Assembly: GCF_003334405.1 (NCBI RefSeq)
Contig: NZ_QOWM01000001.1
DNA length: 64,000 nt
Strand: one strand, 5' to 3'
Origin: Escherichia coli
Lineage (GTDB): Bacteria; Pseudomonadota; Gammaproteobacteria; Enterobacterales; Enterobacteriaceae
Shown here: one piece after another, positions 19,770 to 49,250 of the stretch
Layout: each line of letters opens with the position of its first letter
How positions within the stretch are numbered: the stretch's first letter is position 1
The notes under the pieces: model-generated
Databases searched by the model: none
Seen by the model: the letters and a program-made list of their open reading frames with translations, nothing else
Told to the model about the DNA's origin: nothing
Position numbers and translations under genes: made by a program

Positions 19770-19815
19770 TAACCTGTAGACCTGATAAGACGCGCAAGCG
19801 TCGCATCAGGCAACA
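19770..19815. repeat. REP element between cysA and cysM
   Basis: Palindromic gtagacctgataagacgcgcaagcgtcgcatcaggc, REP-like. Confidence 0.75.
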
Positions 19816-43466: not shown

Positions 43467-44669
43467 TTACAGCACCAGTGCTGCGATTGACGCAGACAGC
43501 ACACTCACCAGGGTAGAGCCGTAAACCAGCTTCAGACCGAAGCGAGAAACCACGTTACCTTGCTCTTCATTCAGGCCTTTAACTGCACCTGCGATAATCC
43601 CGATTGAAGAGAAGTTAGCGAAGGAAACCAGGAACACAGAGATGATGCCTTCAGCACGCGGAGAGAGCGTGGAAGCAATTTTCTGCAGATCCATCATCGC
43701 AACGAACTCGTTGGAAACCAGTTTGGTCGCCATGATACTGCCCACTTGCAGTGCTTCACTGGAAGGAACACCCATCACCCATGCAATCGGATAGAAGATG
43801 TAGCCCAGGATGCCCTGGAAGGAGATGCTGTAGCCAAACCAGCCAGTAACGGTGGCAAACAGTGCGTTCAGCGCGGCGATCAGGGCGATAAAGCCAATCA
43901 GCATCGCGGCAACGATAATGGCAACTTTGAAACCTGCCAGAATGTATTCACCCAGCATTTCGAAGAAGCTCTGACCTTCGTGCAGGTTGGACATCTGGAT
44001 GTTTTCTTCACTGGCATCAACACGGTAAGGATTGATCAGCGACAGCACGATAAAGGTGCTGAACATGTTCAGTACCAGCGCAGCAACGACGTATTTCGGT
44101 TCCAGCATGGTCATGTATGCACCAACGATGGACATCGACACGGTGGACATTGCCGTGGCAGCCATGGTGTACATACGATTACGGGAGATTTTGCCGAGGA
44201 TATCTTTATAGGCAATAAAGTTTTCAGACTGACCCAGAATCAGGGAGCTGACGGCGTTAAAGGATTCCAGTTTGCCCATGCCGTTGACTTTGGAGAGCAG
44301 GAAACCAATTGCGCGGATGATCACCGGCAACACGCGAATGTGCTGGAGAATACCGATCAGTGCAGAGATAAAGACGATTGGGCACAGCACTTTCAGGAAG
44401 AAGAATGCCAGGCCTTGATCATTCATGCTACCAAAGACGAAGTTAGTCCCTTCGTTGGCAAATCCGAGCAGTTTTTCGAACATTTCGGAGAAGCCTTTCA
44501 CGAAGCCTAAACCAACGTCGGAGTTCAGGAAGAACCACGCCAGTAACACTTCGATAACAAGCAGTTGAATAACATAACGGATACGAATTTTTTTGCGGTC
44601 GCTGCTTACCAGCAGTGCGAGAATCGCAACAACGGCAAGTGCCAGTACAAAATGAAGGACGCGGTCCAT
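43467..44669 (-). CDS. nupC: nucleoside:H+ symporter NupC (400 aa)
   Basis: Start at [14 protein letters not shown]...; concentrative nucleoside transporter family; the track ORF is extended 13 codons. Confidence 0.93.
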
Positions 44670-44934
44670 ATTTGCTCCAAATATGAGGCAGGTTAAATTT
44701 CCGTGCACATTCTATGTAACATGGTTAAGGAAAACGAGATCTGACACACACTATAATGACGTCCTGTGACAGGCTTCAAAAATAGTGATCTGTCATACAT
44801 TTCTGCTATGTTGTGTATGGAAGCTGAAAGTTATGTAAATGTGCTAACATTAAACATAACCATAACATTCAAGTCATCAATCTTTTCGTAGTCATAATCC
44901 TGGTCTATCAGAGAAATCACCACAATCCATTTAA

Positions 44935-44956
44935 ATGAATTTGATAATCATTCTCG
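44935..44956 (+). promoter_or_regulatory. putative Fur box in the mntH promoter
   Basis: gataatcattctc matches the 3' part of the Fur consensus GATAATGATAATCATTATC with one mismatch; about 50 bp upstream of the mntH start. Confidence 0.4.
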
Positions 44957-44970
44957 TTTGGTATAGCATG

Positions 44971-44992
44971 AAACATAGCAAAGGCTATGTTT
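44971..44992 (+). promoter_or_regulatory. MntR operator palindrome upstream of mntH
   Basis: Perfect inverted repeat AAACATAGC-aaag-GCTATGTTT about 15 bp upstream of the mntH start codon. Confidence 0.7.
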
Positions 44993-44995
44993 TAG

Positions 44996-46243
<1,248 letters not shown>

Positions 46244-46264
46244 TTGAATGAGCGTCGCATCTGG

Positions 46265-46365
<101 letters not shown>

Positions 46366-46383
46366 CTCCATTGGCGGACGCGT

Positions 46384-46710
46384 TTAATGGCGGTGCCCAT
46401 GACCCCGGCCTTTTCCGCGATGATCGTCACGATCGCGCCAGCCTTCACGATAGCCACGCTCATACGCTTTACGCTTATCCCAGCCACGGTGGTAGCCATT
46501 ATCATGACGCCACCAACGGTTTTTGCGCCACTCATAATTGCGATGCCAGTAGTCACGGTCGCGCCAGTGACCACCGTCCCAGTAATTACCGTAATGATCG
46601 CGATCGCCAATTTGTAATTTGATTGATGGCAGTAGGGTGATTTCACCTGCGTTTGCTGCAAGCGGGGTAAATGCCATCAGGGCGGCCGCCAGAAACAGTG
46701 ACCTGAACAT
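46384..46710 (-). CDS. ypeC: secreted low-complexity His/Arg/Trp/Asp-rich protein YpeC (108 aa)
   Basis: Signal peptide ([21 protein letters not shown]) followed by a repetitive region ([32 protein letters not shown]...GHGHRH); the repeats generate several overlapping spurious ORFs. Confidence 0.8.
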
Positions 46711-46824
46711 TGTTATTCTCCTTCACGCTCGAAGCCGTCAGCGGCCTGTTAACGCAATATTACGGGGAGGTAAAGCCCCGTATCATCGCCATAACTCTTA
46801 AATCATAAAGGAGAGCATTTTTTG

Positions 46825-48081
46825 CTAAACGTTATCGTGGGGTGGCTGTTGCTTCGGACGATTGACCATCATCATCGGCTTACCTGCTAATAACAGCCAT
46901 GCCGGAAGCATGACGATACAGAGCAGCGGTAGCAATGTGGTATTGGGTACAACGACTGCCGCCATAAAAAGACTTAACCAGCCATCGCGTGTTACCACCA
47001 GCACGATGCCGAGAATAGCGCAAGAAACGGTTATTGCCGCTGGTACGGCGGGAACGTGCTCATGCAGCATCAACCCTAATGCCACGCCGACAAACACTGC
47101 CGGGAAGATTCGCCCACCGCGAAAGCCACTGGCGGCAGCAACGACCAGGGCGGCAAGTTTAATTACCGCCAGCAAAAAGTAATCGCTGGTGCTGAAAGCC
47201 TGATTTGCCACCATCTGCTGCATCTCATCCAGCCCTTTAAACAGCGAAACTGGTCCACCAATAACCCCCAGAATACCGAGAATAAATCCGCCAATACCCA
47301 GCACGAGCACCGGATTTTTCATTTGATGCATCATCGCGTGCAACCGTGGTAAGCACCATACGGCGACCATCCCTGCTGCGATGGCAATCGCCGCGACAAT
47401 TGCACCGCTGAGAATATCGGTCATTTCCATCTGTCCGTAATGAGCAATGGGCAGTGAAAAATGAGGATGGAAAAATAATCCGGTAGTAAGTGCACCAGCT
47501 GCTGCCGCCATTAACGGCGCAAAGAGACGATCCCATAGCGGAACTTCACTACTGCCATTTAAGGTTTGCGAAAATATCAACGCCGCCGCAACAGGAGTGC
47601 CAAACAGTGCGCCGATGGTTCCGGCAGAGGCTAAAATAGTCCACTCCATTCGGTTGACGCGCGGTAACAGACGAGCGCCAATGGCAACCGCAAGGGCGAT
47701 ATTGACGGTCATGATCGGATGTTCCGGCCCCAGGCTGACGCCGCCAGCAAGACCGAGAATTAATGCTACGATAAGTCCAGGTAGCGCAGAGGGCGGAACC
47801 GGTGCGCCGATCAGCGGTTCACAGGCGGGGTCTGGTCCGGCATGACCCTGGCTGAAACGGATAACCAACCCCACCGCAATACCCGTTAGCGTTAATACAC
47901 CGATGATCCAGAGGGGTGAATCCTGGGCTATCCCCAGAGTTCCCGGCAGTCGTTGCCAGAGCAAATTCTGTAATACCGAGGCGATTTTCATCACCACAAT
48001 CAGAATAAGACTGGACGCAATCCCAATTGCCACGGCGGGGAGCGATAATAACAACATGGTTCTGGCTCGCGGATGGAGCAT
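46825..48081 (-). CDS. yfeO: ClC-family anion channel-like membrane protein YfeO (418 aa)
   Basis: Polytopic membrane protein with a glycine-rich helix pattern typical of ClC channels. Confidence 0.88.
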
Positions 48082-48284: not shown

Positions 48285-49250
48285 ATGACAAAGTATGCAT
48301 TAGTCGGTGATGTGGGCGGCACCAACGCACGTCTTGCTCTGTGTGATATTGCCAGTGGTGAAATCTCGCAGGCTAAGACCTATTCAGGGCTTGATTACCC
48401 CAGCCTCGAAGCGGTCATTCGCGTTTATCTTGAAGAACATAAGGTCGAGGTGAAAGACGGCTGTATTGCCATCGCTTGCCCAATTACCGGTGACTGGGTG
48501 GCGATGACCAACCATACCTGGGCGTTCTCAATTGCCGAAATGAAAAAGAATCTCGGTTTTAGCCATCTGGAAATTATTAACGATTTTACCGCTGTATCGA
48601 TGGCGATCCCGATGCTGAAAAAAGAGCATCTGATTCAGTTTGGTGGCGCAGAACCGGTCGAAGGTAAGCCTATTGCGGTTTACGGTGCCGGAACGGGGCT
48701 TGGGGTTGCGCATCTGGTCCATGTCGATAAGCGTTGGGTAAGCTTGCCAGGCGAAGGCGGTCACGTTGATTTTGCGCCGAATAGTGAAGAAGAGGCCATT
48801 ATCCTCGAAATATTGCGTGCGGAAATTGGTCATGTTTCGGCGGAGCGCGTGCTTTCTGGCCCTGGGCTGGTGAATTTGTATCGCGCAATTGTGAAAGCTG
48901 ACAACCGCCTGCCAGAAAATCTCAAGCCAAAAGATATTACCGAACGCGCGCTGGCTGACAGCTGCACCGATTGCCGCCGCGCATTGTCGCTGTTTTGCGT
49001 CATTATGGGCCGTTTTGGCGGCAATCTGGCGCTCAATCTCGGGACATTTGGCGGCGTGTTTATTGCGGGCGGTATCGTGCCGCGCTTCCTTGAGTTCTTC
49101 AAAGCCTCCGGTTTCCGTGCCGCATTTGAAGATAAAGGGCGCTTTAAAGAATATGTCCATGATATTCCGGTGTATCTCATCGTCCATGACAATCCGGGCC
49201 TTCTCGGTTCCGGTGCACATTTACGCCAGACCTTAGGTCACATTCTGTAA
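48285..49250 (+). CDS. glk: glucokinase (321 aa)
   Basis: N-terminal ATP-binding motif ([12 protein letters not shown]); 321 aa. Confidence 0.97.

Follow-up and report, generated by a model that had tools for sequence, protein, structure and literature searches.

ypeC of Escherichia coli is an already described gene that belongs to a known family (DUF2502) and has published regulators, and together with its paralogue yaaX it is among the most strongly Rcs-dependent genes; the literature that we searched assigns a biochemical function to neither. In an O157:H7 isolate with a disrupted rcsB gene, ypeC was down 23.7-fold and shared with ycfJ (down 25-fold) the largest changes among genes of unknown function, and ypfG was down 4.6-fold (PMC5343319). 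An inhibitor of LolCDE raised ypeC 42–60-fold and yaaX 8–12-fold and co-induced the wca genes, osmB, bdm, rcsA, ivy, spy and otsAB; that study itself makes no assignment of ypeC to Rcs (PMC5105897). Colicin M induces yaaX, which is listed as a member of the RcsB regulon (PMC2731931, PMC3599342). The promoter of a Serratia DUF2502 gene, taken from an Rcs-on transcriptome, was used in one of three Rcs-responsive luminescent reporter plasmids (PMC8470065).

MarA and SoxS bind at ypeC as well. MarA ChIP-seq in ETEC located a ypeC site, gcattttttgctaaa, for which binding of purified MarA was scored '+++', and ypeC is also a SoxS ChIP-exo target, being one of seven sites common to the MarA ChIP-seq and SoxS ChIP-exo sets (PMC5684230). 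The site obtained by SoxS ChIP-seq in Salmonella is the identical 15-mer (PMC10268841). In the literature searched, we found no report of an effect of MarA, SoxS or Rob on ypeC transcription, or of a contribution of ypeC to resistance.

Here we analyse ypeC within a 64,000-nucleotide stretch of E. coli chromosomal DNA (the window). A sequence-only reading of the window had described its product as a secreted, repeat-dominated protein and tentatively proposed a metal-buffering or envelope-stress role, pointing to the neighbouring Mn/Fe transporter gene mntH. The envelope-stress part of that proposal agrees with the published rcsB, LolCDE-inhibitor and MarA/SoxS data, as well as with the Rcs induction of the paralogue yaaX and of the Serratia homologue.

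Results

ypeC is a core gene under purifying selection

ypeC lies on the minus strand at positions 46384..46710 (108 codons and a TAA stop). It is flanked by nupC (minus, 43467–44708) and mntH (plus, 45005–46243) on one side and by yfeO (minus, 46825–48081) and glk (plus, 48285–49250) on the other. The ORF had been named YpeC from its letters, and this identification was correct: the protein is exactly as quoted, and the 701 bases spanning the gene are 100% identical to K-12 MG1655 and other strains, where they are annotated as mntH, ypeC and yfeO. Besides the ORF listing and the identity to K-12, the assignment draws on a dN far below dS and on Pfam, in which YpeC matches DUF2502 (PF10697) with E=1e-23 and a score of 83.8, over residues 23–106 and model positions 1–90 of 90. 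An NCBIfam search with YpeC gave no family match. PADLOC returned no match for ypeC either, and a role as a component of a defence system was rejected on this basis. Two overlapping ORFs in other frames (46302–46661 and 46363–46622) are mechanical shadows of ypeC.

Of 5426 complete E. coli genomes, 5425 carry the gene. In a sample of 40 rows taken over the whole E. coli ranking, all 39 full-length alleles are exactly 327 bp long. An ISEcp1 insertion truncates ypeC in one strain, showing that the gene can be lost. Five diverged alleles differ from that of K-12 by 7–13 synonymous and 0–2 nonsynonymous substitutions (pS 0.10–0.19; pN 0–0.008), and the low pN relative to synonymous change extends into the low-complexity tail. 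The protein sequence is under strong purifying selection, which acts on the exact sequence and not merely on its composition.

YpeC is predicted to be exported and is biased in composition

The N-terminus of YpeC reads MFR, continues with a hydrophobic core and closes with A-N-A/GE, which is the form of a Sec signal peptide. It spans residues 1–21 (46648..46710, minus), with signal peptidase I cleavage predicted from the sequence after A21. A19 and A21 are invariant or nearly so in YpeC orthologues, and the N-terminal layout is common to all members of the family, which is consistent with the earlier claim of a secreted protein. Because it contains no Cys, YpeC is not a lipoprotein. We infer Sec-dependent export of the precursor and cleavage after A21, which would release a soluble, strongly basic periplasmic protein of 87 residues.

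These 87 residues include 18.4% R, 14.9% G, 11.5% D, 10.3% H, 9.2% W and 8.0% Y. In the long ORFs of the window, the same amino acids are less frequent by a factor of 2 to 6 (R 5.5%, G 7.6%, D 4.4%, H 2.4%, W 1.4% and Y 2.4%), a comparison that bears out the description of YpeC as rich in His, Arg, Trp and Asp. C, F, M and V are absent from the mature protein, and of its last 71 residues, 70 belong to the nine types R, K, D, E, H, W, Y, G and N. The GRAVY value is −2.1 and the pI is about 10, with a net charge of +7.6 at pH 7 and about +17 at pH 5. Across 70 unique Enterobacteriaceae orthologues, the median pI is 9.8 and the median Trp count is 8.

The statement that the protein is dominated by short repeats did not survive analysis. 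Tandem Repeats Finder detected no tandem repeat in ypeC, and the sole direct repeat at the DNA level is one 16-nt pair that encodes WRDRD twice. The recurrence of 3-mers in the protein equals the shuffle expectation (k=3, P=0.52), and the WRDRD pair alone is marginal (k=5, P about 0.05); k-mer recurrence agrees with composition. The variation in repeat number among strains that had been suggested as a check does not occur, the sampled full-length E. coli alleles being uniform in length. YpeC is compositionally biased, not repetitive. Given the lack of repeats and the fixed length within E. coli, a reading of ypeC as a repeat or contingency locus was rejected.

A short conserved core is followed by a low-complexity tail

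Alignment, AlphaFold2 modelling and identity with YaaX delimit a conserved core at about residues 28–70 (46501..46629, minus). In a family-wide alignment of 33 sequences, the core follows the motif P..(V/L)S(L/I)xIGDRDxxGxYWDGxxWRDxxxW, which in YpeC continues to YEWRxNRWW near residue 70. G35, G41, Y43, W44 and G46 are invariant in this alignment, and P28, D36, D38, D45, W49, R50 and W55 nearly so. YpeC has the combination of a signal peptide and the motif IGDRDxxGxYWDGxxWRDxxxW; the motif occurs in 203 of 234 retrieved sequences, and some DUF2502 members carry the core in duplicate. The family-wide alignment indicates that the true DUF2502 domain is the short core.

Word-indexed and exhaustive HMM searches gave a family size of 278 clusters at 90% identity; at 50% identity, 118 clusters were found among 1.84 billion representatives. 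Pfam describes DUF2502 as restricted to Enterobacteriaceae. The family is in fact wider, occurring in Erwinia, Pantoea, Yersinia, Hafnia and Deefgea and, as a large clade, in Dechloromonas, Azonexus, Accumulibacter and other Rhodocyclaceae, where the proteins end in CPPGQAKKGxC in place of His. The membership of YpeC in DUF2502 is unaffected by this wider range. Since the Rhodocyclaceae are not known to have the Rcs system, the function of the core fold cannot be specific to Rcs.

AlphaFold2, run with the 33-sequence alignment, modelled residues 31–70 at a pLDDT of 87–94, with short strands around YWDGGHW, a helix at residues 52–58 and a hairpin at residues 59–68. A run with a shallower alignment gave the same picture. 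The core is therefore predicted to be a small folded hairpin-helix module rich in Trp and Arg. A structure search of AFDB50 with this fold returned DUF2502 proteins only, and a search of the PDB returned nothing similar.

The remainder of the protein, residues 71–108 (46387..46500, minus), is a low-complexity polyampholyte tail that is predicted to be disordered (pLDDT below 50). DUF2502 tails vary in sequence and are always rich in R, G, H, D, P and W; in YpeC, a specific block of 14 residues is conserved among orthologues. The 70 unique Enterobacteriaceae orthologues range from 104 to 119 residues in whole length through (G/R)H expansions of the tail, a variation seen between species only. 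The tail closes with a His/Gly/Arg cluster, defined by the orthologue alignment as residues 97–108 (46387..46422, minus). At least three His residues fall within the last 10 positions in 68 of the 70 orthologues, and H106 and H108 are nearly invariant. Judged by composition, such a conserved cluster is chemically likely to bind Zn, Ni or Cu in vitro. We infer from sequence and model that YpeC is made of two modules, the Trp/Arg-rich hairpin-helix core and a disordered Arg/Asp/Gly tail with a terminal His cluster.

Conserved elements upstream of ypeC

For the analysis of the 5' region, we aligned 73 unique Enterobacteriaceae upstream regions and recorded blocks conserved at 90% or more; synteny and marbox occurrence were counted in 80 species-level loci from GTDB genomes. 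The most distal element is a marbox, GCATTTTTTGCTAAA, at 46815..46829 on the plus strand. Its orientation with respect to ypeC is backward; it overlaps the stop codon of yfeO and lies about 105–119 bp upstream of the ypeC ATG. The match is exact and unique in the window, and this 15-mer is letter for letter the MarA-bound site of ETEC and the SoxS site of Salmonella. With up to 3 mismatches allowed, 72 of 79 species loci have a marbox, and its distance to the ATG is constant at about 118 bp; by chance, about 0.2 such loci would be expected.

Between the marbox and the −10 region lies a conserved element, TTTAAGAGTT (46793..46802, minus; at least 90% conserved), a candidate RcsB half-site that matches the left half (TAAGA) only of the RcsAB box. 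With the full RcsAB consensus, TAAGAATATTCCTA, no site with 3 or fewer mismatches was found near ypeC. The lack of a canonical box at this tolerance is a point, though not a decisive one, against direct binding of RcsB to the ypeC promoter.

A candidate −10 hexamer, TAATAT, is located at 46757..46762 (minus) in the block CGTAATAT, which is at least 90% conserved. It has no good −35 partner, as expected for an activator-dependent promoter, and a scan with the sigma-70 consensus found no full promoter match and no terminator relevant to ypeC. In the presumed 5' UTR, a small GC hairpin (AGGCCG-CTGA-CGGCTT; 46732..46747, minus), which includes the conserved TTAACAGGCC, is retained in most species. 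Some species show variants with G-C to A-U changes on both sides (AAGCCG..CGGCTC, GACCG..GGTC). The folding energy of the hairpin is unexceptional (z=−0.82, single-sequence folding), and RNAalifold reported no structure for the 5'-UTR alignment, into which distant sequences brought gaps. A Shine-Dalgarno sequence, GAAGGAG (46718..46724, minus), is placed 7 nt before the ATG within CGATCGTGAAGGAGAA, which is conserved at 90% or more across the 73 regions.

The gene upstream of ypeC is yfeO in Escherichia only (4 loci) and gpr or ipdC elsewhere. Marbox, TTTAAGAGTT, −10-like hexamer, hairpin and Shine-Dalgarno sequence accompany ypeC across the Enterobacteriaceae while this upstream gene differs. 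The conserved blocks thus point to a compact, activator-type promoter that belongs to ypeC itself. Neither a Fur box nor an MntR palindrome is present in them. Together with the published expression and binding data, these features support the view of ypeC as an envelope-stress gene under a control of its own, in which two inputs, Rcs and MarA/SoxS, come together.

The neighbourhood of ypeC and mntH is inherited

As the sequence-only reading had noted, ypeC converges on mntH. The two stop codons are 140 bp apart, and the spacer is filled by two REP elements that form a BIME (46251..46360, no strand), with inverted repeats at 46272–46301 and 46328–46359. The REP sequence matches the REP consensus exactly and has a further copy at 19776–19811; a search of the spacer against Rfam gave only sub-threshold matches to naRNA4, which is REP-derived. 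In other genera, ypeC and the Nramp gene are separated by only about 35–80 bp.

The regulators of mntH are Fur, MntR and OxyR. A Fur-like site, GATAATCATTCTC (44943–44955), can be read from the sequence upstream of mntH, followed by a perfect MntR-type palindrome, AAACATAGCAAAGGCTATGTTT (44971–44992), the only one in the window. The operators that had been invoked to connect ypeC with metals do exist, but at a distance from ypeC: they sit at the 5' end of mntH, about 1.4 kb past the ypeC stop codon and about 1.7 kb from its start, with the whole of mntH in between.

In 66 of 74 Enterobacteriaceae species loci, ypeC converges on an adjacent Nramp gene (median gap 55 bp), and this arrangement persists where the ypeC orthologue falls below 50% identity. 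Eight Citrobacter species have lost it. Synteny extends over the whole ipdC-gpr-ypeC-mntH-nupC block, and the adjacency of ypeC and mntH therefore carries no specific signal; it is inherited block synteny. yaaX lies between thrC and yaaA, and distant DUF2502 members occur in unrelated contexts. The argument from adjacency consequently fails, given that the genes converge, have separate promoters and answer to different regulators, that the inherited synteny is lost in Citrobacter and that the paralogue is found elsewhere. Co-regulation of ypeC with mntH was rejected on the grounds of geometry, the separate promoter and the different regulators.

Discussion

On balance, we favour the interpretation that ypeC is a stress gene transcribed on its own, with a product that acts in the periplasm and may bind an anionic or glycan component of the envelope, and that YpeC is not a partner of MntH. 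According to this proposal, ypeC would be induced by envelope damage (through Rcs and lipoprotein-trafficking stress) and by MarA/SoxS acting at the marbox. The exported protein might then bind its ligand through Arg and Trp contacts, a step that we advance with low certainty. Candidate ligands would be phospholipid or LPS head groups, peptidoglycan, colanic acid or osmoregulated glucans. The His-rich end could make such envelope binding sensitive to pH or to divalent metals. YpeC would have no part in the work of the Mn/Fe importer. An anionic or glycan ligand is favoured because of the charge of the protein, its Arg/Trp chemistry and the genes that are co-regulated with it by Rcs. As a deduction from composition, the binding of anionic envelope components is suggested with little certainty. 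The conserved His cluster and the persistent neighbourhood of mntH, for their part, count against this interpretation in so far as they would fit a role in metal handling.

Several other explanations can be weighed against this one. The low-complexity translation and the mechanical ORFs in other frames of the same stretch might suggest that the ORF arose by chance in DNA of biased composition or is an artefact of the spacer with its REP elements. The probability of this is negligible, contradicted as it is by the Pfam match, the status of ypeC as a fixed-length core gene of E. coli, a dN/dS close to zero, orthologues throughout Enterobacterales and one paralogue within E. coli, the conserved Shine-Dalgarno sequence and promoter, and the large regulated changes in published transcriptomes; selection and conservation refute a spurious ORF. 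A functional coupling to mntH, in which YpeC would for instance hold Mn or Fe for uptake and share Fur/MntR control, would fit the convergent adjacency in 66 of 74 species, including orthologues below 50% identity. It would also fit the fact that both genes are under oxidative-stress regulators, SoxS for ypeC and, from textbook knowledge, OxyR for mntH. We nevertheless hold such coupling to be very improbable. The genes stand with their stop codons face to face, the operators at 44943–44992 are 1.4 kb beyond the ypeC stop, and ypeC has a conserved promoter of its own. The synteny involves the whole block, with the adjacency lost in 8 Citrobacter species, and both yaaX (at thrC-yaaA) and the distant members sit elsewhere. 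By the Irving-Williams series, moreover, His-rich sites bind Mn(II) poorly.

A metal function independent of mntH deserves more attention: YpeC could be a periplasmic buffer or chaperone for Zn, Ni or Cu, protecting the envelope in a ZraP-like manner by means of its His/Asp-rich mature part and chiefly the C-terminal (G/R)H cluster. Rcs is reported to be induced by high external Zn, among other signals. Despite drift in the length and sequence of the tail, 68 of 70 orthologues retain the His cluster, and YaaX and distant DUF2502 members have His-rich ends too. All four silver-adapted cusS mutants share changes in 23 genes, yaaX and zraP among them (PMC10920338). One Pantoea homologue is even named 'zinc ABC transporter substrate-binding protein', which is probably an annotation artefact of its His-rich stretch. 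Against a metal buffer, invariance in the family falls on G, Y, W, D and R residues of the core and not on His, and the Rhodocyclaceae clade has CPPGQAKKGxC instead of a His end. The known regulators of ypeC respond to envelope and to drug or oxidative stress and are not metal sensors. The main texts of the literature searched report neither metal-dependent expression of ypeC nor metal binding by YpeC, and no metal study is among the publications there that mention the gene. We consider a metal buffer possible but unlikely. Hydrophilins are defined by a Gly content above 6% and high hydrophilicity, values that YpeC attains (Gly 14.9%, GRAVY −2.1). It could accordingly be a disordered, Gly-rich bulk product of Rcs or RpoS conditions that protects against desiccation, cold or osmotic stress with no specific ligand, possibly self-associating through Arg-aromatic contacts. 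ypeC is co-induced with osmB, otsAB and the colanic acid genes, and meta-analyses that cover several stresses list it as a hub or core gene. A DUF2502 gene was among the most strongly induced after 4 weeks in soil at 4 °C, although that study does not state which paralogue (PMC10667640). The core, however, is sequence-specific, with near-invariant positions and a confidently predicted fold, and purifying selection acts on the exact sequence beyond composition, so that a hydrophilin-like protectant seems to us a distinctly doubtful explanation.

A bolder reading can also be formulated, to which we give as little credence as to the hydrophilin-like protectant. DUF2502 might be an orphan periplasmic mini-domain in which a Trp/Arg 'zipper' hairpin core and a His-ended disordered polyampholyte form a pH- or metal-gated binder of anionic envelope polymers or membranes, or even a condensate-forming protein. 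If this were true, such a switchable binder would be an overlooked direct physical effector of the Rcs response and, separately, of some Betaproteobacteria. The value of the locus as a discovery is otherwise small, given that databases and the literature already cover ypeC, its family and its regulators and that the link to Mn/Fe transport fails. What the analysis does provide is a narrower set of targets: a Trp/Arg core of 40 residues whose predicted fold is unlike those in the PDB, a His-capped tail, and a compact promoter in which the marbox keeps a fixed position and a second element is conserved.

Comparison with described systems places YpeC as follows. Its closest relative is YaaX (b0005), the sole DUF2502 paralogue in E. 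coli, which shares the signal peptide and the core (62% identity over residues 2–66) and diverges thereafter. Like YpeC, YaaX has a His-rich C-terminal end and is Rcs-induced (PMC2731931, PMC3599342, PMC5105897). It differs in its tail, which contains a PPPPP stretch and lacks a YpeC-specific block of 10 residues, and in its location (thrC-yaaX-yaaA), which has no metal transporter nearby. In the literature searched, moreover, no MarA or SoxS site is reported for yaaX, in contrast to ypeC. OsmB, YmgD/YmgG, Bdm, Ivy, YpfG, YcfJ and Spy resemble YpeC in being small exported or envelope proteins of the Rcs response that go up on Lol inhibition and down in an rcsB mutant, but they are unrelated to it in sequence and fold.

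ZraP binds zinc and is controlled by ZraSR. Proteins of this type, like YpeC, are small, periplasmic and stress-induced, with ends rich in His and Gly; there is no homology between the two, since searches of Pfam, NCBIfam and the PDB with YpeC led to DUF2502 or to nothing. With the targets of the mar/sox/rob system (acrZ, micF, ybjC, ycgZ and others), ypeC shares a marbox to which both MarA (in vivo and in vitro) and SoxS bind, whereas YpeC is not a component of efflux, porins or repair. Finally, as a lead only, we presume a resemblance to Trp/Arg-rich cationic peptides of the indolicidin, tritrpticin and lactoferricin type and to Trp-zipper hairpins. YpeC differs from these peptides in being an endogenous, predicted periplasmic protein with many acidic residues; what it would have in common with them are RWWR and YWDGGHW-type motifs, a high positive charge and, in the predicted structure, beta-hairpins with aromatic residues on both strands.

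Regulatory elements upstream of ypeC and mntH

The MarA/SoxS site (marbox) of the ypeC promoter lies at 46815–46829 and overlaps the final codons and the stop codon (46825–46827) of yfeO, the gene upstream. In Escherichia, this regulatory site of ypeC is therefore located partly within coding sequence; in other genera, it sits 3′ of gpr or ipdC. A second block, TTTAAGAGTT (46793–46802), which is at least 90% conserved across 73 unique upstream regions, is positioned between the −10-like hexamer and the marbox. This candidate element resembles half an RcsB box, and a loosely similar stretch, TTAGAGATTAGG, occurs in the upstream region of the paralogue yaaX (positions 1140–1152 of the retrieved locus L001).

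A small GC hairpin at 46732–46747, in the presumed 5′ UTR of ypeC, is kept in most Enterobacteriaceae (orthologous loci L027–L105). Both sides of the stem are altered in some loci (AAGCCG..CGGCTC, GACCG..GGTC), and the stem is enlarged in Raoultella. The folding energy calculated from the single sequence was unremarkable (z = −0.82). The hairpin may act as an mRNA-stabilising 5′ stem-loop of ypeC.

The promoter region of the convergent gene mntH holds two operator-like sequences within 44943–44992: a Fur-like site, GATAATCATTCTC, and, just 5′ of the start codon, a perfect 22-bp palindrome of the MntR type, AAACATAGCAAAGGCTATGTTT. Both agree with what is expected from the literature on mntH.

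The mntH–ypeC spacer and variation of ypeC in E. coli

The spacer between mntH and ypeC is occupied by two REP hairpins (BIME; 46251–46360), which gave sub-threshold matches to the REP-derived Rfam family naRNA4. A further copy of the spacer REP is present at 19776–19811 of the window. As the spacer spans only ~35–80 bp in other genera, the REPs are an insertion in the Escherichia lineage.

Several E. coli database clusters (family proteins P0002, P0003, P0006, P0011, P0028, and P0107) contain a 135-aa variant of YpeC, in which a frameshift at the second-to-last codon bypasses the stop, so that translation reads into the REP element (...GHGHRIKHIRQWSTMPDATLARLIRPTNRLFNA). These variants are either real alleles or sequencing errors.

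In E. coli EC488 (NZ_CP109874.1, locus L021), ypeC is truncated at its 5′ end and annotated as a pseudogene, with an ISEcp1 transposase gene directly upstream. At least one clinical isolate can therefore do without ypeC. Across 5426 E. coli genomes, a ypeC match was absent altogether from one, and one copy was plasmid-borne.

DUF2502 proteins outside the Enterobacteriaceae

Two assemblies labelled with the names of non-enteric taxa contain ypeC sequences, namely Rhizobium wenxiniae (L026, a 398-bp contig; 100% identity to the E. coli protein) and Chryseobacterium sp. 18061 (L079; 80% identity). Both are most likely contaminant contigs. A DUF2502 homologue of Pantoea rodasii (AFDB A0A0B1RBG7, 112 aa) bears the database name 'Zinc ABC transporter substrate-binding protein', which is probably an annotation transferred from ZnuA-type proteins with their His-rich loop, and not functional evidence.

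A large DUF2502 clade is found in the Rhodocyclaceae, including Dechloromonas, Azonexus, and Accumulibacter (P0185, P0195, P0164, P0176, and P0236–P0352; locus L022). Its members carry the core motif once or twice, and their C-terminus, CPPGQAKKG(R/N)C, replaces the His end with a sequence containing two cysteines. Pfam describes DUF2502 as restricted to Enterobacteriaceae, a restriction that the Rhodocyclaceae clade contradicts.
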